NCBI RefSeq assembly: GCF_024502345.1
Contig: NZ_JALDNN010000001.1
Length of the DNA stretch: 64,000 nt
Strand: one strand, 5' to 3'
DNA from: Escherichia coli
GTDB taxonomy: Bacteria > Pseudomonadota > Gammaproteobacteria > Enterobacterales > Enterobacteriaceae
Part shown: piece after piece, positions 5,131 through 59,650 of the stretch
Numbering within the stretch: the stretch's first letter is position 1
Layout: the number at the start of each line of letters is the position of its first letter
The notes under the pieces: model-generated
Seen by the model: only the letters and a program-made list of their open reading frames with translations
Database searches by the model: none
What the model was told of the DNA's origin: nothing
Translations under genes and position numbers: made by a program

Positions 5131-5163
5131 TTTTGGATGATGGCCGCCATGTGGTGGCCTGAA

Positions 5164-5466
5164 TTATTTTTTGTTCTGATCGCGCAGCATCGCCTCACGT
5201 AAAATTGCGTTCAGGCGAGTTTGATAGCCTTTACCAGGTCGCTTCAGCCATTCCATCACATCAGCATCAATACGCACCGAAGCCTGGGTTTTCAATGGCC
5301 GATAAAACTTACCGCGTTCTGCGTTAGACCATTGCTCATCGCTGGAAGGCGGGATATCACTGTAATCAATATCTTCGTCGGATTTATTCGCCAGTGCCTT
5401 CAGTTCGGCCTCATGCTGCACATCGAGTGTAGAGGGTGTCCCTCGTTTATGTTTAACCATGCTCAT
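5164..5466 (-). CDS. BrnA-like ribbon-helix-helix antitoxin-family protein (orphan; no BrnT gene seen)
   Basis: Track ORF 5164..5532; likely start at MSMVKHKRG with AGGAG RBS. C-terminal VRIDADVMEWLKRPGKGYQTRLNAILREAM matches my memory of the BrnA/COG3514 signature. Confidence 0.55.
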   Translation of the reverse strand: MSMVKHKRGTPSTLDVQHEAELKALANKSDEDIDYSDIPPSSDEQWSNAERGKFYRPLKTQASVRIDADVMEWLKRPGKGYQTRLNAILREAMLRDQNKK

Positions 5467-5604
5467 AGCGACTCCTCTCTTTACGATCTGCTTTTCGTGC
5501 ACTGATGATTCGAATGTTGGAAATAGCATCACGTTTTAGGAAAAGATGGGGAAGTTGATATGAAGGGGCTGGATGGCAACATTGGGACACCATCCAGCAC
5601 TTAT

Positions 5605-6339: not shown

Positions 6340-6382
6340 TAGAGGATCCTTGATTGCATGGTAAAGAGGATATTATTCCATA

Positions 6383-6568
6383 TTAAACCATCGCGTTATC
6401 CATCTGCTTTTCAAATGCCTGACGAATTAATCCCATCACATAAGGAAGCTCAGAAAGATCGCTGAAACCTACTTCAACATCGCCATTGCCCCAACGGCTT
6501 ATATCTGAGACGTCACGAGCAATACCTTTCGGATCGATCAATTCATGGAATGGCATGTTTAGCGTCAA
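6383..6568 (-). CDS. Small hypothetical protein (57-61 aa) between the GmrSD-like and Fic-like genes
   Basis: ORF whose TTG start overlaps the upstream gene stop by 4 nt (alternative ATG 12 nt downstream, MPFHELIDPKG...); no strong RBS; same strand as flanking genes. Coding status uncertain. Confidence 0.35.
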   Translation of the reverse strand: MTLNMPFHELIDPKGIARDVSDISRWGNGDVEVGFSDLSELPYVMGLIRQAFEKQMDNAMV

Positions 6569-8481
6569 ATGTAATCGTTTTTTTGCGGCACTGCATCAAC
6601 AAAATTCGTCTCCGCTTTGAAGGCAACATAGAGCTTCAATATTTCTCGCGTAACCCCAGCGTCCAGCGCCATAACGGCATCAGAAAGGCTGTCAAAAAGT
6701 ACGCGGATATGTGTACCTTCTTCAAGTTGCGGGAAATCAGCAAGGACATATCCCGTTCCTCGTTCAACGACGGTGCGATAACGAGCCAACACGTCTTCCG
6801 AAAGTTTGGGGATCGCCCAGACGTCTATTGCCAGCTCGGCCAGACGTTCCGCTCTCTTTTGTATCGCTGCACGATCCCATATTTCACATTGCCCTAACCC
6901 CGTGTTCAGGCGTAATGGACTTTCCTTAAAGCCACCTTTTATATCTCGTTTCTTCGCAAATGGACGGTCGCTGTAGCTTGAGTTATAGCCAGTTAACGTT
7001 AAATTACCCAACGTATGGAGCCACTTTTTATGGATTCGCTTCCATTCCGGACCAAGGTCATCGCGCCACTTCGCCGATAAATTAGGGTTCTGCGGCATGA
7101 TATGTTCAATCGTATATTCGTCTACGCAGACCCGTTCTTTACGACCGTGGTTTTCAAATCTGCGTAGCCAATAGCTGCGATTACGGAAGTTGTAGAGGTC
7201 GCGAGTTTTCAGTTCACGTTGAAATTCATCATCATCCGGGAAACGACGGTAGGAAGGCAGTTCCAGCAAATGCGCCGCAATGCTCTCCAGATAACGCTCT
7301 TTATCCAGCACTTTGTAAAACGTGGCGAAGGTTTTGGTAAATGAGTTGGTGGGAATGGCACAGACTGCGCGCCGGAAGATATACGACTCAATTAAACGCG
7401 TGGCACTTAAAAAATCCGCGGCAGAAAGGATCCCCTGTTTATAGTCGTGATAAAGCACCAACAGGAACGGCCATGCAGCATCAACTTTCAGCTGGCGTAG
7501 ATCCTGAAACGCCATCTTTAAGGTTTTATCCTTTTCGCTATCCAGCGCCATCGCACAAAAATAGTCAGCAAACGTACGAATATCCGCAACCAGCGCCTCC
7601 ATCCCGCTATCCATCACTCCTGGTTTTCGCGCATAGCGTTTAAAGGCTTCATAGACATCACCAATTCGCGGAATCTCACCTGTTTTTACCGTCAGGTAAT
7701 TACGCATAAAACTGTCGAAATAGTCAGTGTATCCCTTCTGACCAAATGCCAGCTCCATGGGCCGCCAGTAATCGTCGTACAGTTGGCTTTGATGTTCTGG
7801 CTCCAGCCCCATCAGAACATAGTTGCGTACCAGATCCGCCTGACTCAGCGCTTTTCCTGTTGAGTTCATGCTTTCAAAGATTAGTTGCGGATTATCCTGA
7901 CCGCGATTCAAGGCGACATCCACAATAAGCAGTTTGGAAAGTCCCTGACATAACGCGGTGAAATTGCCGTGGAGTTTGCCTATTTGCTCATGGAAAAACT
8001 CAAAATTCTCTTTCACGCGTAGAGAGCAATTTTCTGCCAGCGGTTTTTGTCTAATCAATGCCAGCAGGCTTTCTCTGTCCGTTTGCGTAAGCAGTAACTT
8101 AAAACCACGCTCGCCCGATTCATACGGATTGAGCAGATAATAGTTTCGTAATTTCATGGCGGAGAAACCATCCATCACCTCGTCATCACCAAGATGTCTG
8201 GACAACGCTTCCAGCAATAACATCGCCGTTGTTAGGCGTTGCTGACCGTCAATCACCAGTAAGGGAGAGATCCCCGAAACCTGATATAGGCCCTGTTCGA
8301 TATACACCACCGAGCCGATAAAATGCGCCGGGATATCATCACGCTGCCCGGCACGTATTACATCGTCCCAGAGCTGGCGGCACTGTTCCTCTGACCATGA
8401 ATAAGTACGCTGATAAATGGGAATAACGAATTGCTGAGAGCGTTTAAGAAAATCGAGTAATCGGGCTTCGGTGGCTTTCAT
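6565..8481 (-). CDS. GmrSD-family Type IV (modification-dependent) restriction endonuclease, single polypeptide (DUF262 + DUF1524)
   Basis: 638 aa; N-terminal FVIPIYQRTYSW and DGQQRLT motifs (DUF262/ParB-like NTPase); C-terminal EYTIEHIMPQ...HTLGNLTL...N His-Me finger signature (DUF1524); AGGAG RBS 7 nt upstream of the ATG. Confidence 0.8.
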   Translation of the reverse strand: MKATEARLLDFLKRSQQFVIPIYQRTYSWSEEQCRQLWDDVIRAGQRDDIPAHFIGSVVYIEQGLYQVSGISPLLVIDGQQRLTTAMLLLEALSRHLGDDEVMDGFSAMKLRNYYLLNPYESGERGFKLLLTQTDRESLLALIRQKPLAENCSLRVKENFEFFHEQIGKLHGNFTALCQGLSKLLIVDVALNRGQDNPQLIFESMNSTGKALSQADLVRNYVLMGLEPEHQSQLYDDYWRPMELAFGQKGYTDYFDSFMRNYLTVKTGEIPRIGDVYEAFKRYARKPGVMDSGMEALVADIRTFADYFCAMALDSEKDKTLKMAFQDLRQLKVDAAWPFLLVLYHDYKQGILSAADFLSATRLIESYIFRRAVCAIPTNSFTKTFATFYKVLDKERYLESIAAHLLELPSYRRFPDDDEFQRELKTRDLYNFRNRSYWLRRFENHGRKERVCVDEYTIEHIMPQNPNLSAKWRDDLGPEWKRIHKKWLHTLGNLTLTGYNSSYSDRPFAKKRDIKGGFKESPLRLNTGLGQCEIWDRAAIQKRAERLAELAIDVWAIPKLSEDVLARYRTVVERGTGYVLADFPQLEEGTHIRVLFDSLSDAVMALDAGVTREILKLYVAFKAETNFVDAVPQKNDYI

Positions 8482-8756: not shown

Positions 8757-11111
8757 ATGCTTTTTATGTCATCAACTAATTTCAGTCAGATCGCAGCCTT
8801 CCTGTGGTCTGTCGCCGACCTGTTACGCGGCGATTTTAAACAATCCCAATATGGGCGAATTATTCTCCCTTTCACTCTTCTTCGTCGTCTGGAATGCGTA
8901 CTCGAAACAACGAAAGACGCGGTCATTGCCGAGGCGCAAAAAGTAAAAGCCATGAAACTGCCGGAGGAAGCCCAGGAGAAAATGATCCTGCGGGCGACTA
9001 ATGGCCTCACGTTCTTTAATGCCTCAGCAATGGATCTCAGCAAAATGGGGCAAAATGGCATACAGGACAACCTGGAAAACTACATCCAGTCGTTCTCTTC
9101 GGATGCCCGCGAAATTTTCGAACACTTCAAGTTCAGCGAGTTTGTCGGACAGCTGGCGGATGCGAACTTACTGTTCAAAGTGGTGCAAATATTCGCTAAA
9201 GCAGATTTATACCCGGAGCACGTCACCAACCACGATATGGGGCTGGTATTTGAGGAGCTGATCCGACGTTTTGCCGAGAGTTCTAACGAAACCGCGGGGG
9301 AGCACTTTACCCCGCGTGATATCGTCAATCTGACCACCTCGCTGGTGTTTTTCGATGATGATGACGCGCTCAATAAAGACGGCATCATCCGCACCATTTA
9401 CGATCCAACGGCAGGAACCGGCGGCTTTCTCTCCTCCGGCATGGAGTTCGTCCACAAACAAAACCCCAATGCCGTGATGCGCGCGTTTGGTCAGGAGTTA
9501 AACCCGGAATCCTACGCCATCTGTAAAGCCGACATGCTGATTAAGGGCCAGGACGTCAGCCTTATCAAACTCGGCAACACCCTGTCCAACGATCAGCTCC
9601 CCGCAGAAAAATTCGATTACATGCTTTCTAATCCACCTTTCGGCGTGGACTGGAAAAAGATAGAAACCGACATCATCAACGAGCACAAACTCAAAGGTGC
9701 CGATGGTCGATTTGGCCCCGGCCTGCCCCGCGTCTCCGACGGTTCGTTGCTGTTTCTGCTTCACCTGATCAGCAAAATGCGCGATGCCAAAAGCGGTGGC
9801 GGGCGGATCGGCATCATTCTTAATGGTTCGCCGTTATTCACCGGCGGTGCAGGAAGCGGTGAAAGCGAGATCCGCCGCTACATTCTGGAAGCGGATTTGC
9901 TGGAAGGCATTATCGCCCTGCCCACCGACATGTTTTACAACACCGGTATCGCTACCTATGTGTGGATTTTGTCGAATAAAAAAGCGCCAGAACGCAAAGG
10001 CAAAGTCCAGCTTATTGACGGCAGCAACCTGTGCGGCAAGATGCGTAAATCGCTGGGGTCAAAACGCAATATTCTCGGAGACGAGGATATTGGTTTAATC
10101 ACCCGCACGTTTGGCGATTTCGAACCCGTTGCCACCACCACGCTTGCGGCGTTAGGCCTGGAGAAAGCACCTGAACAAAAATCCAGCCGGGGACGCCAGC
10201 CCGCAACAACCAAAACCGAGGCGGCAAAAACCTTTGCCAGCAAAGTCTTTCACAGCACCGAGTTTGGCTATCGTCGCATCACCGTTGAGCGCCCGTTACG
10301 CCTGTCGGCTCAGATCACCGATGACGCCATTGCCACATTACGCTTTGCGCCGAAGCCGTTTAACGCGCCGATGGCACAACTGTATGACGCCTTTGCTTTC
10401 CAGTGGCAGGACGGTAATTACGGCGACTTAACAGCGCTAGAAAGTGAAGCCCGCGCCATTCTTAAAGCCGATTTTAGCGAGCTGAAAGAGAAGCAAATTA
10501 AAGATCTGCTCGACAGCAAATTATGGCTGGCCCAGCGCGGATTAATGGAAAAAGCGCGGCGTATTCAGGCGGCGATGGGTATGCAGGCGGGCGGCAAAGA
10601 CACCGTTAGCAATAACTTTAATCTGTTCCAGTTGACGCTGAAAGAGGCGTTCAAAACCGCAGGCGTGAAGCTGGATGCGAAAGAGAACAAGCAGTTTATC
10701 GATGCCATCACCCGCAAAAACCCGGATGCCGAGCCGGTAATCAGCAAGGTACTGAAAGAGGCGGCCCAACCGCTGTATGGCGCGTGTGAGTACAACGGAA
10801 AGGTTGTGGAGTTTGAACCGGATGGCGACCTGCGCGATAACGAGAATGTACCGTTAAATCCGTCTGTATCTACCAGCGAGTTGATCGAGGGTTACTTCAA
10901 AGCAGAAGTGTTGCCGCACGTTGCGGATGCGTGGATTAACGCCGATAAGCGCGATGCGAAAGATGGGGATATCGGGATTGTGGGGTATGAAATTCCGTTT
11001 AATCGTCATTTTTATGTTTATCAGCCGCCAAGGCCGCTGGAGGAGATTGATGCGGATCTGGATGCGGTAAGCGCTGAGATTATGAAACTGTTGCAGGAGG
11101 TACATTCCTGA
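8757..11111 (+). CDS. hsdM: Type I restriction-modification system DNA methyltransferase subunit HsdM (long form, about 780 aa)
   Basis: NPPFG catalytic motif ([12 protein letters not shown]), AdoMet motif region ([10 protein letters not shown]), HsdM-like N-terminus ([31 protein letters not shown]). Alternative start at 8766 (MSSTNF) has better RBS spacing. About 270 aa C-terminal extension beyond a typical HsdM. Confidence 0.85.
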
Positions 11112-12385
11112 TGGCAGGGTTAAATAAATATCAGGCGTATCCGGAGTATAGGGATTCTGGGGTGGAGTGGTTGGGGGAGATTCCTGCTCATTGGGAAACG
11201 TTACAGCATAAATACGTCGCATATTATACTAAGGGCAAAAATCCTTCTTTTTTGCTCGATACCCCAACAAAGAACACCCTACCTTATCTTTCTATGGATT
11301 GTTTAAGAAATAACTCCATAGATAAATATGCTATAGTATCTAATGATATTCGTATTGCATTAGAGGGACAACCACTTATTATTTGGGATGGTTCTAATGC
11401 TGGGGAATTTGTCAAAGGCCGAAAAGGTATTTTATCCTCAACGATGGCCTCTGCAACGCTTAATTATCCTTTGCACATGCAATATTACTGGTATTTATGC
11501 ACTGCAATTGAATCTGAAATGCGTAAACATGCAAATGGTATGGGTATCCCTCATGTAAATGGAGAAGAATTAAAGAACATTCATCTAAGTATCCCTTCAA
11601 TAACCGAACAAAAAAGCATCGCTGGTTTTCTTGAATTTGAAACAACGAAAATTTCGAACCTTATAGAAAAACAACAACAACTAATTGAATTACTAAAAGA
11701 AAAACGTCAGGTCGTGATTAGCCATGCGGTCACAAAAGGGCTAAATCCTGACGTGCCGATGAAAGATTCTGGGGTTAAGTGGTTGGGGGAAGTTCCAAAA
11801 CACTGGCACATATGCAAGTTAAAATGGTTTGCTAATTTGAAAAGTGGTGATTTTATAACCAGCAATTCAATAGAACCAGAAGGAAACTATCCTGTATATG
11901 GTGGAAATGGATTAAGAGGATATTATTCTTATTTTACACACAATGGTGAATATGTTCTTATTGGTAGACAAGGTGCTCTTTGCGGAAATATAAATTACGC
12001 AATTGGAAAGTTTTGGGCTTCAGAACATGCTGTTGTTGTCACCCCAAACGAAAGAGCTGTTACAATATGGTTAGGAGAATTATTAAGAATAATGAACTTA
12101 AACCAATATTCAGTTTCTGCTGCACAACCGGGGCTTGCGGTTGAAAGAATTACTGATTTATATATTCCAATCCCACCATATCAAGAGCAAATAAATATCG
12201 GAACTTATATATCTAAATATATTTCTCTAGATAAAAAATTGATTGAGCATAGTACAGATAATATTGAACTCCTCAAAGAACGCCGCACCGCCCTTATCTC
12301 CGCCGCCGTCACCGGCAAAATTGATCTACGCAACTGGACCGCGCCCATCCCCGAAGCGGAAACACCCACGGAGGCCAGCGCATGA
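11111..12385 (+). CDS. hsdS: Type I restriction-modification specificity subunit HsdS (two target-recognition domains)
   Basis: Start overlaps hsdM stop (TGATG). Two repeated conserved segments (DSGVEWLGEIPAHWE / DSGVKWLGEVPKHW) each followed by a variable, AT-rich TRD; conserved central and C-terminal coiled regions (LIEKQQQLIELLKEKRQ / LIEHSTDNIELLKERRTALISAAVTGKIDL). Confidence 0.85.
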   Translation: MAGLNKYQAYPEYRDSGVEWLGEIPAHWETLQHKYVAYYTKGKNPSFLLDTPTKNTLPYLSMDCLRNNSIDKYAIVSNDIRIALEGQPLIIWDGSNAGEFVKGRKGILSSTMASATLNYPLHMQYYWYLCTAIESEMRKHANGMGIPHVNGEELKNIHLSIPSITEQKSIAGFLEFETTKISNLIEKQQQLIELLKEKRQVVISHAVTKGLNPDVPMKDSGVKWLGEVPKHWHICKLKWFANLKSGDFITSNSIEPEGNYPVYGGNGLRGYYSYFTHNGEYVLIGRQGALCGNINYAIGKFWASEHAVVVTPNERAVTIWLGELLRIMNLNQYSVSAAQPGLAVERITDLYIPIPPYQEQINIGTYISKYISLDKKLIEHSTDNIELLKERRTALISAAVTGKIDLRNWTAPIPEAETPTEASA

Positions 12386-15300
12386 GCCACGACATTACAA
12401 AAGAGGTTAACCTGCAAAACGACATCATCGCGCAGATGGTGGAAAAAGGCTGGATTGTCGGCAAAGGTGACGGCTACGACCGGGAACGTGCGCTATACGC
12501 ACAGGATACCTTAAACTTCGTGCAGACCACTCAAACGCAGGAGTGGGAGAAATTCGCCCGCGTTTACCCTAACGACCCAGAGCGCCATTTCCTCGACGCG
12601 CTGGTCGCGCAGCTTAAAAAAGCCGACAGCAACGCCACCGATATCCAGTCGCGCACCTGGGGTACGCTCGGCGTACTTCGCCACGGTCTGAAAATCCGCA
12701 ATGCCCGTTTTTCGCTGTGCCAGTTTAAACCGGAACACAACCTCAACCCGGAAACGCTGGCGCGCTATCAGCAAAATATCTGCCGTATCGTGCCGGAACT
12801 GGTCTACAGCCCTTATGCCTCAAATAGCGTCTTTGCAGAAACGGGCGTGAAAGCCAAAAAATGGCGCATCGACCTTGTGCTGTTTATCAACGGCCTGCCA
12901 ATTGCCACGCTGGAGCTGAAATCCGAATTTAAACAGGCGGTGCAGAACGCCATTGCGCAGTACAAAAAGACCCGCCTGCCGAAAGATCCCGCTACCAATA
13001 AACCTGAACCGCTGCTGGCCTTTAAGCGCGGGGCGCTGGTGCATTTTGCCGTCAGCCAGTATGACGTCTTTATGACCACCAAACTCGCAGGTGACAGCAC
13101 CTTCTTCCTGCCGTTTAACAAAGGCACCAAAGAAGGCGGTGCAGGCAATGAGATCCCCGAAGATACTCGCCGCTACGCCACCGATTATCTGTGGAATGAA
13201 GTGCTGCTGCCGGACAACTTATTAAAAATCCTCGCCAGTTTTGTCCATTTGCAGATTGAAGAAAAAGAGGAGTGGAACGGGCTGAAAGCGAAGAAAGAGA
13301 GCCTGATTTTCCCGCGCTATCACCAGTGGGATGTGGTCAACAAACTGCTGGAGGCTGCGACGGTCGAAGACACCGGCCATAAATACCTGATTCAGCACAG
13401 CGCAGGTTCCGGAAAGTCGAACTCCATTGCCTGGACCGCCCACCAGCTCTCTCGTCTGTACGACGCAAACGGGGAAAAACAGTTCCACTCCGTTATCGTG
13501 GTGACAGACCGCACGGTGCTGGACGACCAGCTTCAGGACACCATCTGGCAGTTCGAACATGCCGACGGCGTGGTCGGGCGCATCAATAACAGAGAGGGCG
13601 ACGGCTCTAAATCGGAAAAGCTCGCCAACGCGCTGGAAAACTCGCAACCGATTATTATTGTCACCATCCAGACGTTCCCGTTCGTATTGAAAGCTATCGA
13701 AAACAGTGTCAGCCTGAAGCAGCGTAAATACGCGGTAATCGCCGATGAAGCGCACTCCTCGCAGAGCGGTTCTACCGCCCGTCAGCTCAAAGAAGTGCTG
13801 ATGAGCGAAGAGATGGATGATGACGTGGTACTGTCGTCAGAAGATATTCTGGATGCGACCATCGCCGCACGGAAAGGTAGCAGTAACCTGAACTACTATG
13901 CCTTTACCGCCACGCCCAAATCCAAAACCCTGGAACTTTTTGGTCGCCGTCCACGTCCCGATGAACCGGCGTCAAAAACCAATAAACCTGAGGCCTTCCA
14001 CGTCTACTCCATGCGCCAGGCAATCGAAGAAGGCTTTATCCTCGACGTGCTGAAAAACTACACCAACTACAAAGTGGCGTATCAGTTGCTGCAAAAGCTG
14101 GAAGATGAAGACCGCGAAGTCGATAGCAAACGGGCGAAGGTAAAACTCAATCAGTGGGTGACACTGCACGACCACAATATCTCGCAGAAGGTGAAGGTGA
14201 TTGTGGAGCACTTCCGCAAACATGTGATGCATCTGCTTGGCGGCCAGGCTAAAGCGATGGTGGTCACCAGTTCACGCAAAGCCGCCGTGCGCTATAAGCT
14301 GGCATTTGATAAATACATTAGCGAGAACAATTACCAGAAAATCAGCGCGATGGTGGCGTTTTCCGGGGAAGTTGAATTCCGGGAAGGCGACCCTAACAGC
14401 CTGGCATTGTTAAACCAGAAATTTACTGAAATAAACATGAACCCCGGCCTGAAAGGACGGGATATGCGCAAAGCCTTCGACAGCGACGATTACCAAGTCA
14501 TGCTGGTCGCCAATAAATTCCAGACCGGTTTTGACCAGCCGAAGCTGTGCGCGATGTACGTGGATAAAGCCCTCGGCGGCGTCGAGTGTGTGCAGACGCT
14601 CTCCCGCCTGAACCGCACCTATCCGGGCAAAGCGGAATCTGGCACTTTTGTCCTCGATTTTTATAATGATCCGGACGAGATCCTCGGCGCATTCCAGCCC
14701 TATTTCCAGACGGCGGAACTGACCGATGTCAGCGATCCGCAGCAGGTATTCGATCTGTTTGAAAAACTGCGCGCCACGCAGATTTTTCAGTGGCATGAAG
14801 TCGAGCAGTTCTGCGAGGCATACTTCATCAAAAATAAATCGAATGCGGCGATCAGTAATATTTGCAAACCGGCGGTCGAACGCTGGAAAAAGCGTTATCT
14901 GATGGCGATAGACGCCTATTTGACCGCCAAAGAGATGTTCGAGCGCACCAAAAAAACGGGCGATACAGTATTAATCACCAATGCGGAAAACAGTTTTAAA
15001 GCCTGTAAGCAGGAGAAAGATCGTCTGGAAATATTCAAAAAAGATCTCGGCAGCTTTGTTCGTTTTTATGAATTTATGTCGCAGATCGTTGAATACGATG
15101 ACAAGGATCTGGAAAAGCTAAGCCTGTTTGCTCGTCATCTGCGTCCGCTGCTGCATGAGCAACGTCTGGAAGATGATGAAATTGATCTCAGTAATGTGGA
15201 GATGAGTCACTATCGTTTATCGAAAATCCATGAGCAAGATTTACGCTTACAGGAAGAAACGCCTGACTATACGCTGGATGCAAGTAATAATATTGGTACG

Positions 15301-15645
15301 GCAAAAGCGAAAGATAAAAAAGAGGAGTTTTTATCTCAGGTGCTTTCTCGGATGAATGAATTATTCATTAGTGACCATTTGACCGACAAAGATATGATCA
15401 GCAATGCTTTTTCGGTGTATAACAAAATAACTGAAAATGAAAATGTTATGACACAAATTAAAAACAATCCCCCAGAACAAGCGATTCTTGGTGATTTCCT
15501 CCAGGCAGTTGATAATGCTGTAATGGACAGTAATGACGCTCGGCAAGAATTCATGTTGCAATATTTATCCGATCCAGCTCGGGCAAAGGGCTTTGCTTAT
15601 CTGATGTTTGATATGCTAACGGGGAAAATTGCTTTGCCAACATAA
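12382..15645 (+). CDS. hsdR: Type I restriction enzyme endonuclease/translocase subunit HsdR
   Basis: 4-nt start/stop overlap with hsdS (ATGA). N-terminal PD-(D/E)xK motif (RIDLVLFINGLPIATLELKS), Walker A (HSAGSGKSNS), DEAH box (VIADEAHSSQ). 1087 aa. Confidence 0.85.
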   Translation: MSHDITKEVNLQNDIIAQMVEKGWIVGKGDGYDRERALYAQDTLNFVQTTQTQEWEKFARVYPNDPERHFLDALVAQLKKADSNATDIQSRTWGTLGVLRHGLKIRNARFSLCQFKPEHNLNPETLARYQQNICRIVPELVYSPYASNSVFAETGVKAKKWRIDLVLFINGLPIATLELKSEFKQAVQNAIAQYKKTRLPKDPATNKPEPLLAFKRGALVHFAVSQYDVFMTTKLAGDSTFFLPFNKGTKEGGAGNEIPEDTRRYATDYLWNEVLLPDNLLKILASFVHLQIEEKEEWNGLKAKKESLIFPRYHQWDVVNKLLEAATVEDTGHKYLIQHSAGSGKSNSIAWTAHQLSRLYDANGEKQFHSVIVVTDRTVLDDQLQDTIWQFEHADGVVGRINNREGDGSKSEKLANALENSQPIIIVTIQTFPFVLKAIENSVSLKQRKYAVIADEAHSSQSGSTARQLKEVLMSEEMDDDVVLSSEDILDATIAARKGSSNLNYYAFTATPKSKTLELFGRRPRPDEPASKTNKPEAFHVYSMRQAIEEGFILDVLKNYTNYKVAYQLLQKLEDEDREVDSKRAKVKLNQWVTLHDHNISQKVKVIVEHFRKHVMHLLGGQAKAMVVTSSRKAAVRYKLAFDKYISENNYQKISAMVAFSGEVEFREGDPNSLALLNQKFTEINMNPGLKGRDMRKAFDSDDYQVMLVANKFQTGFDQPKLCAMYVDKALGGVECVQTLSRLNRTYPGKAESGTFVLDFYNDPDEILGAFQPYFQTAELTDVSDPQQVFDLFEKLRATQIFQWHEVEQFCEAYFIKNKSNAAISNICKPAVERWKKRYLMAIDAYLTAKEMFERTKKTGDTVLITNAENSFKACKQEKDRLEIFKKDLGSFVRFYEFMSQIVEYDDKDLEKLSLFARHLRPLLHEQRLEDDEIDLSNVEMSHYRLSKIHEQDLRLQEETPDYTLDASNNIGTAKAKDKKEEFLSQVLSRMNELFISDHLTDKDMISNAFSVYNKITENENVMTQIKNNPPEQAILGDFLQAVDNAVMDSNDARQEFMLQYLSDPARAKGFAYLMFDMLTGKIALPT

Positions 15646-15710
15646 AAATACGTTAATAGCCGGGGTCGCACTTTCTACCCCGGCCATATTATTTACAATA
15701 AGGAATAGCT

Positions 15711-16424
15711 ATGCTGAAGATGATTAAAGATTTTAAATTCAAAAAATACATTAAAAAATTACGTGAAGAAGGTTTGTTATTTTATGTTTCTTTCGGGTTT
15801 ATATTTACATTGTTAATGGAAGTTGATGATCGATTACCGTACTATCTTCAACAAGACTTCTTTTTTTATACACTTATAGGATTTATGCCAATCAATATAT
15901 TCTTTGTTTTGATTTGCACATATATATTTTTCAATGCCGTCCATGCGCTTATTTCACCATATAAATTTCAAAGAATTGGTGAGAAATTCCTCTCTGAACT
16001 TGATAAAAGAACACAACAAATTGGCTTTATTATTTCATTCATATGTTTTGGCATGACTTTGTTTTGTGCACTGGTGTGGTTGCTGTTTTTTGAAATGAAT
16101 ACTGAAAGTTACTACGCAAAATATACATTAAATTTTTTAGCTGCTTTTATCATTATGATTATAATTTCTTCAGTAGTTAATCCAGTAATGAACAGAACAT
16201 TCCAAAAAATGAAGGAATCGGACTCACATGGAAATTCAAAAATAATTCTTATAATTATAATCATTATATTGTTGCTATTATTACCAATTGCGTGCATTAT
16301 CAATAAAAATAAAACAATTGAAATCAATATTAAGAAAGAAACCTATCAGCAAATAAAAGAAAAAACAAAGATAAAACCAGAAGATTATATCAAAAAATTG
16401 ATTACTGATATTAAATTCAACTAA
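15711..16424 (+). CDS. Hypothetical AT-rich integral membrane protein (about 4 predicted TM segments, Lys-rich termini)
   Basis: 237-aa ORF 65 nt downstream of hsdR with AAGGAA RBS; strongly AT-rich; hydrophobic stretches (FYVSFGFIFTLLM, IGFMPINIFFVLICTYIFF, IGFIISFICFGMTLFCALVWLLFF, NFLAAFIIMIIISSVV, ILIIIIIILLLLLPIACII). No recognisable family. Confidence 0.6.
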   Translation: MLKMIKDFKFKKYIKKLREEGLLFYVSFGFIFTLLMEVDDRLPYYLQQDFFFYTLIGFMPINIFFVLICTYIFFNAVHALISPYKFQRIGEKFLSELDKRTQQIGFIISFICFGMTLFCALVWLLFFEMNTESYYAKYTLNFLAAFIIMIIISSVVNPVMNRTFQKMKESDSHGNSKIILIIIIIILLLLLPIACIINKNKTIEINIKKETYQQIKEKTKIKPEDYIKKLITDIKFN

Positions 16425-16428
16425 TATC

Positions 16429-16463
16429 TATATGTACCCTGGTTTCTTCCAGGGTACATATAA
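16429..16463. terminator. Perfect hairpin between the membrane-protein gene and convergent yjiS (possible bidirectional terminator)
   Basis: tatatgtaccctgg-tttcttc-cagggtacatata inverted repeat; no clean U-tract on the plus strand. Confidence 0.35.
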
Positions 16464-16499
16464 AAAGTTAATATCCTGATTTATTCTCAACATCCTCTA

Positions 16500-16664
16500 T
16501 TACTCCACATCCTCCCTGCTTAACCCAATATCCCTCAACCGTTCATCACTCATCTGCTGTAACACTCGTCGGGTCTGCATTTGCCGCCGCCAACGCCTCA
16601 CCGCATGCCAGAGTTGCACAAGTCTGATAAACGGCGTTTTGGCTTTGTTTTCGTGAAATTCCAT
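16500..16664 (-). CDS. yjiS: DUF1127-family small protein YjiS
   Basis: 54-aa ORF below the track cutoff, read by hand: MEFHENKAKTPFIRLVQLWHAVRRWRRQMQTRRVLQQMSDERLRDIGLSREDVE, GAGGAGG RBS upstream; conserved position next to yjiR. Confidence 0.6.
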   Translation of the reverse strand: MEFHENKAKTPFIRLVQLWHAVRRWRRQMQTRRVLQQMSDERLRDIGLSREDVE

Positions 16665-16840: not shown

Positions 16841-18253
16841 ATGACGCGTTATCAACATCTGGCAACTCTGCTTGCCGAGCGGATTGAGCAAGGGCTGTAT
16901 CGTCACGGGGAGAAATTGCCGTTGGTGCGCAGCTTAAGTCAGGAGCACGGCGTCAGCATCAGCACCGTGCAGCAGGCGTACCAGACGCTGGAGACGATGA
17001 AGCTCATCACTCCGCAGCCGCGTTCGGGTTATTTTGTCGCACAACGTAAAGCCCAGCCGCCTGTACCGCCGATGACGCGTCCGGTGCAGCGCCCGGTGGA
17101 AATTACCCAGTGGGATCAGGTGCTGGATATGCTGGAGGCGCATAGCGACAATTCCATTGTTCCGTTAAGCAAAAGCACGCCGGATGTCGAAACGCCCAGC
17201 CTGAAACCGCTGTGGCGTGAGCTAAGCCGGGTGGTGCAGCATAATCTGCAAACCGTTCTCGGTTATGACTTGTTAGCCGGTCAGCGAGTGTTGCGGGAGC
17301 AGATTGCCCGCCTGATGCTCGACAGCGGCTCGGTGGTCACCGCCGATGACATCATCATCACCAGCGGCTGCCATAACTCGATGTCGCTGGCGTTAATGGC
17401 GGTGTGTAAACCGGGCGATATTGTCGCGGTCGAATCTCCCTGTTATTACGGTTCGATGCAGATGCTGCGAGGCATGGGCGTGAAAGTGATTGAAATCCCA
17501 ACCGATCCAGAAACTGGCATCAGCGTTGAAGCACTGGAACTGGCGCTGGAACAGTGGCCGATTAAAGGCATCATTCTGGTGCCAAACTGTAATAATCCGC
17601 TGGGATTTATTATGCCGGACGCACGCAAACGGGCCGTTCTCTCTCTCGCTCAGCGTCATGATATTGTGATTTTTGAAGATGATGTCTACGGCGAACTGGC
17701 AACGGAGTATCCGCGCCCGCGGACCATCCATTCATGGGATATCGACGGGCGAGTGCTGTTGTGCAGCTCGTTCAGTAAAAGTATTGCTCCAGGCCTGCGC
17801 GTGGGTTGGGTCGCACCGGGGCGTTATCACGATAAACTGATGCATATGAAATACGCCATCAGCAGCTTTAATGTGCCGTCCACGCAAATGGCGGCGGCAA
17901 CGTTTGTGTTGGAAGGCCACTATCATCGCCATATCCGGCGGATGCGGCAGACTTATCAGCGCAATCTGGCGCTTTATACCTGCTGGATACGGGAATATTT
18001 TCCCTGCGAAATCTGTATTACGCGCCCGAAAGGCGGATTTTTACTGTGGATCGAATTGCCTGAACAGGTCGATATGGTCTGCGTCGCGCGGCAGCTGTAC
18101 CGCATGAAAATCCAGGTGGCGGCAGGCTCGATTTTCTCGGCTTCCGGCAAATACCGTAATTGTCTGCGCATCAACTGCGCTTTGCCGCTCAGCGAAACCT
18201 ATCGCGAAGCACTAAAGCAAATTGGCGATGCCGTGTATCGGGCAATGGAATAA
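16841..18253 (+). CDS. yjiR: MocR/GabR-type GntR-family transcriptional regulator with aminotransferase-like domain (YjiR)
   Basis: 470 aa; N-terminal winged HTH (LPLVRSLSQEHGVSISTVQQAYQTLE) plus a large PLP-fold domain (FSKSIAPGLRVGWV). Confidence 0.9.
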   Translation: MTRYQHLATLLAERIEQGLYRHGEKLPLVRSLSQEHGVSISTVQQAYQTLETMKLITPQPRSGYFVAQRKAQPPVPPMTRPVQRPVEITQWDQVLDMLEAHSDNSIVPLSKSTPDVETPSLKPLWRELSRVVQHNLQTVLGYDLLAGQRVLREQIARLMLDSGSVVTADDIIITSGCHNSMSLALMAVCKPGDIVAVESPCYYGSMQMLRGMGVKVIEIPTDPETGISVEALELALEQWPIKGIILVPNCNNPLGFIMPDARKRAVLSLAQRHDIVIFEDDVYGELATEYPRPRTIHSWDIDGRVLLCSSFSKSIAPGLRVGWVAPGRYHDKLMHMKYAISSFNVPSTQMAAATFVLEGHYHRHIRRMRQTYQRNLALYTCWIREYFPCEICITRPKGGFLLWIELPEQVDMVCVARQLYRMKIQVAAGSIFSASGKYRNCLRINCALPLSETYREALKQIGDAVYRAME

Positions 18254-18370
18254 ATTCGAATTAGTGCCGAGGCCCCTGATTTACTCTCACGAATAACCTG
18301 TGACTCGTTTTATCTTTATAGCGACATCGCCACGTTCCGGCATGGCTTAGGCAAAGTGTGCTTCGTTCAT

Positions 18371-18475
18371 GCCAGATGCCATGTGAACGCCTTACCAGGT
18401 CTACAAAATATTAAAAGTTCAATATATTTAATGGATTATGTAGACCTGATAAGCGTAGCGCATCAGGCTGCTTTG
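18371..18475. repeat. REP/BIME-type palindromic repeats
   Basis: gccagatgcc...gccttaccaggtctacaaa / tgtagacctgataagcgtagcgcatcaggc palindromic units. Confidence 0.4.
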
Positions 18476-18495
18476 CGTTTGTCATCAGCCTCTGA

Positions 18496-19452
18496 TTAGT
18501 ACTCGATCCATGGTTCGCGCTTGCTTTCAGGCAAGGGCTGATCTAATGCCTGCATTTGCTCTGCCGAAAGTCCGGTATATCGTTGTATCCATTCAGGATC
18601 GGCCCCATTCTGCAACAACAATCGGAGGAGGCTCCGTTCCCCTTCTACTTTCCCTTCTTTCCTCCCCCTCTCCCTTCCCAACAGCCATCCATCATTATGA
18701 ATTCGCTCTGCAATTGTCATTATTCGCTCCCTGTGGTGTGGCATTCGCCTGGTAAGTTCGCTGATAAACGCCTTAAAACGCGCTTCATCGCCAGTCAGTA
18801 AAATGTAATTTAACAGCGCAGTTATCTGGCTGTCATTAGCACACTCTGTAACCAGTAATACTACCAGTTGGTCAATAAGCCCCATCAGATCGCGCTGGCG
18901 AATATGCTTTTGGATCAACTCCAACAGGGCGACTCTGCGATGCTGCACAATCTCGTCGTCTGGCACGACAGTGACATCCACCAGCGGGAACGCTGCGGTA
19001 TAAAGTTTCCGTGCGGTAGTCGGGGCGGCAAATTCGTCCAGCCAGCACAGGGACCAGGGGTAAGGACTACGGCTACCGTGATAAAACAGCATCGGGATAA
19101 CCAGCGGTAGCGGCCGGCGTTTATCATGCTCGATATGGCGCTGCATCACCGCCATGGAATATCGCATCAGGCGAAACGCCATATGAATATCCTCACGGCT
19201 CTGATGTTCAATCACCACATAGATATAGCCATCACCTTCACGGGTCTTTACCGACCACAGAATATCGGAGTGTAGCGCCCGCAATTTTTCATCGACAAAG
19301 CTGGCTGACTCCAGTTTTAAGCTGTCGAGATCGCACAGTTCACGTAAATCTTTGGGTAAGTGGATCTCCATAAAATCCCGCGCGGTGTCAGGGTGCGTGA
19401 GAAAGGACTTAAATAATGCGTCATGCGGCGTGCTGGTCGTGAAGTTTGTCAT
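18496..19452 (-). CDS. rpnD: Rpn-family recombination-promoting nuclease / PD-(D/E)xK transposase-like protein (apparently intact)
   Basis: 318 aa; N-terminus [24 protein letters not shown] typical of Rpn (YhgA-like) proteins; position matches the yjiP/yjiQ locus, which I recall as a split pseudogene in K-12. Confidence 0.75.
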
Positions 19453-19918
19453 GGCGATCCGTCACCTGTAGATAAGATGGCCCGACTTTAGCGACTAACA
19501 AAATCATTCTCACCCGGCAATTTCCCGTTCCCCGAGGCGCTTTCCAGGCTATTTTTGTTCATCTGCAAACGATACATTTTTCCGGAAACAGGCTCGCGTT
19601 TTACATTTCCTGTACCCGGCAGATATTCCCCTTTCCACCGCGCTCTTTTGATTAACCGCAAATTTTAATTACACTTAAGGTGTATATTTTCTATGCAACC
19701 CATCAATTCAAGAGGTGTAATGTGCTGATGACTATTTGTAATCGTTATACATTCTGACCCGAAGTCAGAAGGTATTTCTCTGTCTGTGTGTTCACAGGCA
19801 GTGTGGTTGATTACATGAAATTCAGTACATTTGTCCTTCTCGCCTGCCTTTCGTCATTACCGACGGTATTGAATTTCGTTTTCCCCGTTGGGGTTCTCCG
19901 GACAAGGAGTTGTTTGTT

Positions 19919-21151
19919 ATGCCACGTTTTTTTGCCCGCCATGCCGCTACGCTGTTTTTCCCGATGGCGTTGATTTTGTATGATTTTGCCGCGTACCTGT
20001 CGACGGACCTGATTCAGCCGGGGATCATTAATGTGGTCCGTGATTTTAATGCCGATGTCAGTCTGGCCCCTGCTGCCGTCAGTCTCTATCTCGCTGGCGG
20101 TATGGCGTTACAGTGGCTGCTGGGGCCGCTTTCCGACAGGATTGGCCGCAGGCCAGTGCTGATTACCGGGGCGCTCATTTTTACCCTTGCCTGCGCTGCG
20201 ACAATGTTCACAACGTCTATGACACAGTTTCTTATCGCGCGTGCAATTCAGGGCACCAGTATCTGTTTTATTGCTACCGTTGGTTATGTCACGGTGCAGG
20301 AGGCGTTCGGACAGACAAAAGGGATCAAGTTGATGGCGATTATCACCTCCATCGTACTGATTGCGCCGATTATTGGCCCGCTTTCCGGCGCAGCTCTGAT
20401 GCACTTTGTGCACTGGAAAGTCCTTTTTGCCATCATTGCGGTTATGGGTTTTATCTCATTTGTTGGCTTACTGCTGGCGATGCCAGAGACGGTGAAGCGC
20501 GGCGCGGTTCCATTTAGCGCCAAAAGCGTCTTGCGCGATTTTCGTAATGTCTTTTGCAATCGGCTGTTCCTCTTTGGTGCAGCAACCATCTCTTTAAGCT
20601 ATATCCCCATGATGAGTTGGGTGGCTGTCTCGCCGGTGATCCTGATTGACGCAGGCGGCTTAACGACCTCGCAGTTCGCCTGGACACAGGTTCCGGTGTT
20701 CGGCGCGGTGATTGTCGCGAATGCCATCGTGGCGCGTTTCGTTAAAGATCCGACCGAACCGCGCTTTATCTGGCGTGCTGTACCCATTCAACTGGTCGGC
20801 CTCGCGCTGTTGATTATCGGCAATCTGCTGTCACCGCACGTCTGGCTGTGGTCGGTGCTGGGCACCAGTCTGTATGCTTTCGGGATTGGTTTGATCTTCC
20901 CGACCTTATTCCGCTTTACGCTTTTTTCCAATAACTTACCGAAAGGGACCGTCTCCGCATCGCTGAATATGGTGATCCTGATGGTGATGTCTGTCTCGGT
21001 CGAAATTGGCCGCTGGCTGTGGTTTAACGGCGGTCGCTTGCCGTTTCATCTGTTAGCCGTTGTGGCAGGCGTTATCGTCGTTTTCACCCTGGCCGGATTG
21101 CTTAATCGCGTGCGCCAACATCAGGCTGCCGAGCTGGCGGAGGAGCGGTGA
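19919..21151 (+). CDS. mdtM: MFS multidrug efflux transporter MdtM
   Basis: Track ORF 19910..21151; 12-TM MFS-like protein starting [23 protein letters not shown]; synteny. Confidence 0.9.
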
Positions 21152-57819: not shown

Positions 57820-59334
<1,515 letters not shown>

Positions 59335-59337
59335 TTG

Positions 59338-59650
<313 letters not shown>

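Follow-up and report, generated by a model that had tools for sequence, protein, structure and literature searches.

Bacterial geneticists have worked for decades on the restriction cassettes of the immigration control region (ICR), a classic locus. The closest described counterpart of the gene reported here is STM4522 of Salmonella enterica LT2, which UniProt lists as 'inner membrane protein'. We analyzed a stretch of 64,000 nucleotides (nt) from an Escherichia coli chromosome (NCBI RefSeq assembly GCF_024502345.1, contig NZ_JALDNN010000001.1; hereafter the window) that crosses the ICR from yjiA to yjiS, and in it an AT-rich open reading frame (ORF) for a membrane protein at 15711..16424 on the plus strand. 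By its translation and by the RefSeq coding sequence (CDS), the ORF measures 714 nt including the stop codon and encodes 237 amino acids (aa); RefSeq holds the product as WP_060616454.1, 'hypothetical protein', and several E. coli genomes are annotated likewise. The local order is brnA, fic, GmrSD (minus strand), hsdM, hsdS, hsdR, ORF (plus strand), yjiS (minus strand) and yjiR. The ORF product and STM4522 are alike in length (233-237 aa, colinear), in their five hydrophobic helices, in the motifs LPYYLQ, YY.K and a KPE.YI tail, in AT-richness of the gene, and in being encoded by the last gene of the ICR, convergent with yjiS. They differ in what precedes them: STM4522 follows hsdS-symE of a type IA system, whereas the E. 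coli ORF follows hsdR of an unrelated type I family. At 37% identity, their divergence also far exceeds that of the flanking YjiA, YjiX and YjiN, whose E. coli and Salmonella versions share 90-94% identity. The ORF product is a member of an AT-rich inner-membrane protein family without a name, represented in Salmonella by STM4522, and this family is a fast-diverging, or cassette-exchanged, resident of the ICR far edge. It is an ordinary-looking, lineage-restricted accessory membrane protein gene whose notable feature is a position at the ICR edge that is kept across genera and cassette swaps.

Full-length colinear homologues at 30-42% identity occur in Salmonella, Pseudocitrobacter and one further enterobacterium. 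An exhaustive phmmer search of representatives returned the homologues of 32-42% identity with expectation values (E) of 6.8e-37, 3.7e-29 and 1.8e-21, together with weaker ones at 23-29% identity, and tblastn against the Salmonella Infantis locus gave 2e-26 at 93% coverage. A word-indexed search of 5.8 billion proteins returned Escherichia clusters only; a scan of 100,044 species representatives with a closer alignment found only E. coli E69 and Salmonella diarizonae. An initial annotation, made from the letters of this stretch, had called the gene an orphan, which stands for function and annotation but not for homology, given these relatives and the more distant ones described below. In S. 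enterica the gene order is yjiA-brnTA-mrr-hsdR-hsdM-hsdS-symE(STM4523)-STM4522-yjiS(STM4521), in Pseudocitrobacter faecalis it is yjiA-mrr-hsdRMS-symE-homologue-aldehyde dehydrogenase, and in the further enterobacterium (locus L003, which has no match in E. coli DNA) it is yjiA-mrr-hsdM-hsdS-hsdR-homologue-aldehyde dehydrogenase. The 42%-identity homologue (P0010, locus L004) is a protein close to the Salmonella STM4522 sequence; L004 was considered as a second E. coli lineage and rejected, since its match to E. coli DNA, at 83% identity, is confined to hsdS-symE.

In all four genera a family member is the last gene at the far edge of the ICR, which in E. coli and Salmonella is the side of yjiS; the loci compared are the window, six further E. 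coli loci, and those of Salmonella, Pseudocitrobacter and the further enterobacterium. The restriction genes inside this edge are a different matter: HsdR proteins of the Salmonella, Pseudocitrobacter and further-enterobacterium loci are 23-25% identical to the window HsdR, HsdM of the further enterobacterium is 27% identical to the window HsdM, and the hsd gene order varies among family loci (R-M-S or M-S-R). The three partner type I systems are thus unrelated at the family level. Since the family occupies the same edge slot behind all three, it is not the partner of one particular restriction enzyme. The four ICR occurrences share one syntenic position and therefore count as a single independent observation.

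Within E. coli, 114 of 5426 complete genomes have the ORF segment, each as one chromosomal copy. Only from query position 1703, equivalent to window position 16502, do 3755 genomes match, against 114 that match across this boundary. Homology to most other E. coli thus resumes at the yjiS stop codon (16500..16502), which makes the ORF and the hairpin behind it part of the variable cassette. All 114 carriers have the hsdR 3' end of the window type, and the window hsdR itself (12382-15645, separated from the ORF start by a 65 base pair (bp) spacer) is found at ≥95% identity in 114 genomes. Such complete linkage with one hsdR allele is what would be expected if the ORF encoded an abortive-infection-type membrane effector or an accessory of the restriction system, both among the options of the initial annotation, with a function coupled to the adjacent type I system, such as depolarizing the membrane when restriction fails or anchoring the enzyme. 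It would also agree with the observation that all closer homologues follow type I genes, and with the 32 nt between hsdR and the homologue in the further enterobacterium, a gap without a hairpin that suggests co-transcription. We nevertheless regard a role coupled to hsd as quite improbable. The linkage in E. coli arises because a whole haplotype travels together: all E. coli loci inspected share the arrangement brnA-fic-GmrSD-hsdMSR-ORF-yjiS. Two more genomes carry an hsdR of ~80% nucleotide identity, and the one hsdMSR of ~80% identity that was inspected lies in a different chromosomal island, followed by mcrBC-like genes and without the ORF. A further 3641 genomes have yjiS and no ORF, symE and a terminator hairpin stand between the hsd genes and STM4522 in Salmonella, and the partner systems come from three unrelated type I families with differing gene orders. 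The EcoKI system of K-12 works without such a gene. In PADLOC, none of 5027 models matches the protein at E ≤ 1, which, together with the distant relatives among metabolic and transport genes (see below), also leaves the reading as a known abortive-infection effector without support. The haplotype effect and the cross-genus contexts, in which the family follows either hsdR or hsdS-symE, lead us to reject the ORF as an accessory factor of this restriction system; the family member is a cassette-edge resident, neither a subunit nor an obligate accessory of the restriction enzyme.

The ORF is a genuine protein-coding gene under purifying selection. The chance of 237 stop-free codons at its composition is ~5e-10, and none of 2000 shuffles had an open stretch of more than 151 codons, versus 240 observed. 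Six intact alleles vary at 89 nucleotide sites, of which 45 are third codon positions; pairwise ratios of non-synonymous to synonymous substitution rates (dN/dS) are 0.21-0.40, a significant synonymous excess (Fisher p 1e-5 to 4e-3). In the same genomes the dN/dS of hsdR is 0.04-0.12, making that of the ORF 3-8 times higher. This difference from its neighbors, the AT-rich DNA, the lack of a recognizable promoter and the few genomes with split or unannotated copies would all suit a chance or decaying, functionless ORF. We consider this very unlikely, given the open-frame probability, the significant purifying selection, and a length and architecture kept across genera at 30-40% identity. A CDS is annotated under the match in nearly all listed carriers. 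A targeted search for one frameshift variant (A7 for A6), first seen in strain Z1323HEC0477, found it in 1 of 114 carriers; we dropped it as a sign of decay, since a lone case at an A6/A7 run may reflect a sequencing error. Amino acid variation among the six alleles is unevenly spread: it affects 12 of 20 positions in the fifth helix, 1 of 21 in the N-terminal segment and 2 of 40 in the C-terminal tail, and the Escherichia fergusonii homologue carries a 2-residue deletion in the fifth helix.

Hydropathy and the AlphaFold2 model agree on five hydrophobic helices, at about residues 22-38, 61-81, 104-126, 139-156 and 178-197, where the initial annotation had counted about four. Together with the family alignments they define a membrane core of residues 22-197 (15774..16301, plus strand). 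The conserved motifs LPYYLQ (residues 42-47) and YY.K (134-137) lie within two acidic loops. In order, the family alignment runs through a basic N-terminus, helix 1, the acidic LPYYLQ loop, a short interfacial helix, helix 2 and a basic loop, and then through helix 3, the short YY.K loop, helix 4, a second basic loop, helix 5 and the 40-residue tail TIEINIKKETYQQIKEKTKMKPEDYIKKLI. The fifth transmembrane helix (16242..16301, plus strand) holds the Ile/Leu run IILIIIIIILLLLL (residues 178-191), which is present as first described; no other segment of the protein is under less constraint, and the run would be only a generic membrane anchor. The Lys-rich termini were also confirmed, with Lys or Arg at 8 of the 21 N-terminal residues and at 11 of 39 in the C-terminal tail. 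The full-length AlphaFold2 model is all-helical up to a C-terminal extended segment and two short helices, with a predicted local distance difference test score (pLDDT) of 72 and a predicted template-modeling score (pTM) of 0.59. This C-terminal module of 40 residues (16302..16421, plus strand) has a strand-helix-helix pattern (TIEINI, KETYQQIKEKT, PEDYIKKLI) and is the best-conserved part of the protein: 12 of the 37 cross-genus invariant columns fall inside it. These columns were counted in a five-sequence alignment; an alignment of 12 members likewise shows the five helices and the conserved tail.

Loops 2 and 4 are richer in Lys and Arg than loops 1 and 3 in 12 of 12 homologues, and the N-terminus is likewise richer in most; loops 1 and 3 are acidic or neutral across the same set. 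Under the positive-inside rule, by which Lys/Arg-rich loops are cytoplasmic, these charges predict a topology with the N-terminus inside, five transmembrane helices and the C-terminus outside. With the N-terminus inside, the motifs of loops 1 and 3 and the conserved tail would share one, predicted periplasmic, face.

The pattern of the C-terminal module raises the question of whether it is a ribbon-helix-helix (RHH) domain. We modeled an artificial tandem construct (tail-linker-tail, with matching rows from 11 homologues), and in it both copies formed a strand-helix-helix unit, with strands at residues 3-11 and 54-62 (pLDDT 75.5, pTM 0.64). On this model the C-terminal module is probably a dimerization module. 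The top two PDB matches of the tandem model in Foldseek were an F-plasmid relaxosome chain and AvtR, both RHH-type proteins, at non-significant values (E = 0.9-1.7, TM-score 0.42-0.55). One might therefore picture a membrane-tethered RHH regulator or antitoxin-like protein, with a cytoplasmic dimeric DNA-binding tail and a membrane part that senses a signal. The alternating hydrophobic residues of the strand would suit such a regulator, as would the Lys-rich tail in E. coli and weak Pfam matches to NikA-like (3.5e-3) and RHH_7 (0.08), each in one of 12 members. We consider this improbable: a comparison of profiles with Arc, CopG and Mnt by hhalign gave 0.6% probability (of these three sequences, those of Arc and CopG were confirmed against PDB), and a profile search of PDB found no RHH protein. 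Moreover, the outward-facing strand residues are unconserved and often acidic, and in most homologues the net charge of the tail is zero or negative. A protein that starts in the cytoplasm and crosses the membrane five times would also have its tail outside the cytoplasm, where, if this topology is right, the tail would be unable to act as a cytoplasmic repressor. We describe the tail as RHH-like without assigning it to the RHH superfamily.

The composition of the gene is far from that of its host, as first noted: the ORF has 26.1% G+C (26.9% at third codon positions), versus 49.1% for the window and 49.8% for hsdR. Low G+C content is a trait of the family, whose genes have 26-37% in hosts of 39-55%. 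A membrane protein of foreign, AT-rich composition is therefore supported, and a holin-like lysis protein, also an option of the initial annotation, or a prophage remnant comes to mind for a small hydrophobic protein with charged termini encoded by AT-rich DNA. This is extremely unlikely: 237 aa and five transmembrane helices do not fit the range usual for holins, PHROG gave no family at E ≤ 1, and Pfam yields no family that describes the protein and no holin family among its matches. Neither endolysin, spanin, integrase nor any other phage gene lies nearby, the neighbors being hsdR and yjiS. We found no plasmid copies of the family and no genuine copy in the phage collection, in which the sole match is a 501-kb Salmonella chromosome contig filed there. 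In NCBIfam nothing came near any cut-off. Weak, overlapping Pfam matches to the unrelated transmembrane families DUF898, MscS_TM and Cation_ATPase_C (E ~2e-4) were read as compositional and set aside. A Foldseek search of AFDB50 returned uncharacterized relatives in Citrobacter farmeri, Serratia rubidaea, Pseudomonas prosekii and Pseudoteredinibacter; the matches that follow them, to Yip1, DUF3180 and GtrA-like helical bundles, are weak (E > 0.01) and were likewise rejected. Searching PDB with the full-length model gave nothing below E = 1.

Outside the ICR, Enterobacter wuhouensis, Enterobacter bugandensis and Pantoea agglomerans carry a distant subfamily at 20-24% identity. Its genes occupy a small islet flanked by an AI-2E-family transporter gene and by mmuP/mmuM, which is a metabolic and transport context and not one of defense. 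The expectation that homologues always stand beside restriction or defense genes consequently holds for all closer homologues and breaks down for this subfamily; homologues lie mainly in non-defense contexts in the distant group, not in the close one. In the Enterobacter loci, a GFA-family (PF04828) gene stands upstream of the homologue and shares 4 nt with it in L006 (1385-2484) and 28 nt, as called, in L022 (9645-10744), an overlap that suggests translational coupling. In Pantoea the GFA gene is missing. A conserved protein of 148-149 aa precedes both.

A relative in Vibrio parahaemolyticus is colinear over its full length (phmmer E = 2.6e-4). The variable island in which it lies (L009-L014; ~1-13900 in L009) contains VspR-like regulators, a helix-turn-helix (HTH)/M78-peptidase pair, a Multi_ubiq/ThiF/BubE ubiquitin-like system, several small unknown proteins and an HD-domain protein, and looks like a defense island. 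This relative, with its Multi_ubiq/ThiF/BubE system and VspR-like regulators nearby, is one of the observations that would fit stand-alone defense at the envelope in the manner of superinfection exclusion, with the protein blocking entry of phage or plasmid DNA at the inner membrane independently of restriction enzymes. Others are the inner-membrane location with conserved motifs on one, predicted periplasmic, face, the ICR location in four genera, and a weak Pfam match to SieB (E = 1e-3) in one of 12 members. The SieB match is probably compositional, however, the four ICR occurrences are not independent, and the protein lacks both PADLOC and PHROG matches as well as carriage by prophages or plasmids, the usual home of such proteins; the Enterobacter and Pantoea subfamily sits in a non-defense context. 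We therefore treat exclusion as a tentative possibility, well short of an even chance.

Our preferred reading is that the ORF is a real AT-rich inner-membrane gene at the ICR edge with an envelope-level role that is independent of hsd, to which we assign a probability of roughly 0.55. H-NS silences AT-rich foreign genes, and because of its extreme AT content the ORF is probably a horizontally acquired, H-NS-silenced accessory gene. Its C-terminal module may pair strand-to-strand, giving a dimer, and the protein could act in this form on the outer side of the inner membrane. An envelope-level role without dependence on hsd would be most likely, for example interference with foreign DNA or with phage entry. 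The proposed mechanism is the weakest step of this explanation. Several observations weigh against the reading as a whole. A simple scan found no sigma-70-like promoter upstream of the ORF on the plus strand, so the gene may be silent or rely on read-through from hsdR, and a dN/dS 3-8 times that of hsdR indicates only moderate constraint. The non-defense context of the distant subfamily means that any defense role may not be general. The predicted periplasmic placement of the tail comes from loop-charge counting alone, and the Lys-rich tail of the E. coli protein (+11/-6), which is neutral or acidic in most homologues, argues for the opposite side; the dimer derives from an artificial tandem model of moderate confidence. 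Finally, among the papers searched, none mentions STM4522, its SL1344 neighbors in this context or the E. coli accessions.

A bolder version, in which the STM4522-like protein is an unrecognized membrane component of the ICR, seems improbable to us. The periplasmic surface of the dimer, including the RHH-like module, would then intercept incoming phage or plasmid DNA or its entry machinery, or would position the resident type I enzyme at entry sites. If true, it would explain why the gene is retained at the edge while the adjoining restriction genes are swapped. In at least four genera this membrane protein family has kept the ICR edge while the type I systems beside it, of three unrelated families, were exchanged, and the ORF and STM4522 are thus a concrete candidate for an overlooked ICR function. 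Should they have no phenotype, the ORF would be one more AT-rich, probably silenced accessory membrane protein, and the practical value would lie in better annotation (positional orthology to STM4522, five transmembrane helices, conserved C-terminal module) and in a caution that adjacency inside a single haplotype is a poor guide to function.

The surroundings of the ORF agree in most points with the initial annotation. Between hsdR and the 237-aa frame are 65 bp, and the frame has a ribosome-binding site of its own, a Shine-Dalgarno-like AAGGAA read from the sequence at 15700-15705 (plus strand), 5 nt before the ATG and unchanged across five alleles. The span first given, 15711-16465, starts correctly and ends too late, since the CDS ends at 16424 and the remainder takes in the downstream hairpin. 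After the hsdR stop codon lies a GC-rich hairpin (15659..15684, plus strand) with an 8-bp stem, GCCGGGGT/ACCCCGGC, followed by CAUAUUAUUU. It has a fold energy of -16.7 kcal/mol (z = -1.7), is kept in other alleles and fails the T-run rule of the terminator scan; we regard it as a weak terminator-like element between hsdR and the ORF, in line with independence from hsd. Signals that bear on co-transcription are this hairpin and the absence of a detected promoter in E. coli, the hairpin-free 32-nt gap in the further enterobacterium, and the intervening symE terminator in Salmonella. The second hairpin, in the convergent gap between the ORF and yjiS (16429..16462), has a 6-nt loop on a perfectly paired 14-bp stem, folds at -23.4 kcal/mol (z = -7.0; 0 of 200 shuffles equal its folding) and is classed as terminator-like on the minus strand. 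Its stem, described at first as perfect, is so in the window allele, whereas other alleles carry 1-2 uncompensated mismatches. It is a probable shared transcript end or stabilizer for the ORF and yjiS. No Rfam family matches within or around the ORF.

YjiS (DUF1127), encoded at 16500-16664 on the minus strand and convergent with the ORF, is 54% identical between E. coli and Salmonella (L026 12741-12905), versus 90-94% for the flanking core, indicating that the gene at the ICR boundary is itself fast-evolving. At the corresponding position of the Pseudocitrobacter locus and of the further enterobacterium, yjiS is absent. In some carriers of the ICR haplotype (L018 13198-14418 and L020 13196-14416, versus window 16841-21151), yjiR is a 309-nt pseudogene, mdtM is absent and an Rpn-family gene stands immediately next to what is left of yjiR; variability thus extends to the framework beyond yjiS. 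On the other side of the ORF, hsdS (11111-12385) has 38.6% G+C, versus ~50-52% for hsdM (8757-11111) and hsdR, and its product varies by annotation from 424 to 467 aa among carriers, which is consistent with swapping of target-recognition domains. The GmrSD-type (DUF262/DUF1524) type IV restriction gene (6382-8481, minus strand) is open for 638 codons, with a stop at 6565, versus 699 codons in USDA-ARS-USMARC-49610 (L001). The two frames diverge after ...AVPQK in the manner of a 1-bp indel, so the window copy reflects either a true frameshift, which may inactivate the allele, or an error of sequencing; in strain GF60 the gene is likewise split in two pieces. The BrnA antitoxin gene (window ~5160-5470, minus strand) lacks an adjoining BrnT gene in most copies of the haplotype: OkiPb01695 (L002 1124-1700) retains brnT and brnA, and elsewhere among the strains inspected an orphan antitoxin stands beside the Fic-family gene.

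Farther along the window, at 40636-52366, an integrase gene (50842-52092, minus strand) flanks a tRNA gene (52285-52366, minus strand). The AT-rich island beside it contains an sce7725/sce7726 family pair (40636-41991), a truncated hsdM-like methyltransferase fragment (44451-45254), an AIDA-I/MisL-type autotransporter (45318-48506) and an IS5-family transposase (48576-49544). Above the Rfam gathering score, we found the antisense RNA Ysr276 (181 bits) and two tandem naRNA4/CssrE elements (84 and 78 bits) at 58381-58575 and 59409-59580 (minus strand).

Beyond STM4522, three groups of known systems invite comparison. By analogy from general knowledge, the ORF product resembles membrane proteins of phage exclusion and defense (RexB, SieB, Imm and KwaA, and the transmembrane effectors of retrons and of cyclic-oligonucleotide-based antiphage signaling systems) in being a small multi-pass inner-membrane protein encoded in a defense hotspot; unlike them, it matches neither PADLOC models nor PHROG families, lacks a constant partner gene and is not carried by prophages. 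With RHH proteins (Arc/MetJ/CopG and the tandem TraY and AvtR) it shares the strand-helix-helix order and the alternating hydrophobic residues of the strand, but its module is fused to a protein with five transmembrane helices and is predicted to lie outside the cytoplasm. It resembles H-NS-silenced AT-rich islets in its 26% G+C within a genome of ~50%, in its hypervariable surroundings and in an AT-richness common to all homologues. Unlike typical recent acquisitions, however, this family keeps its position in several genera.

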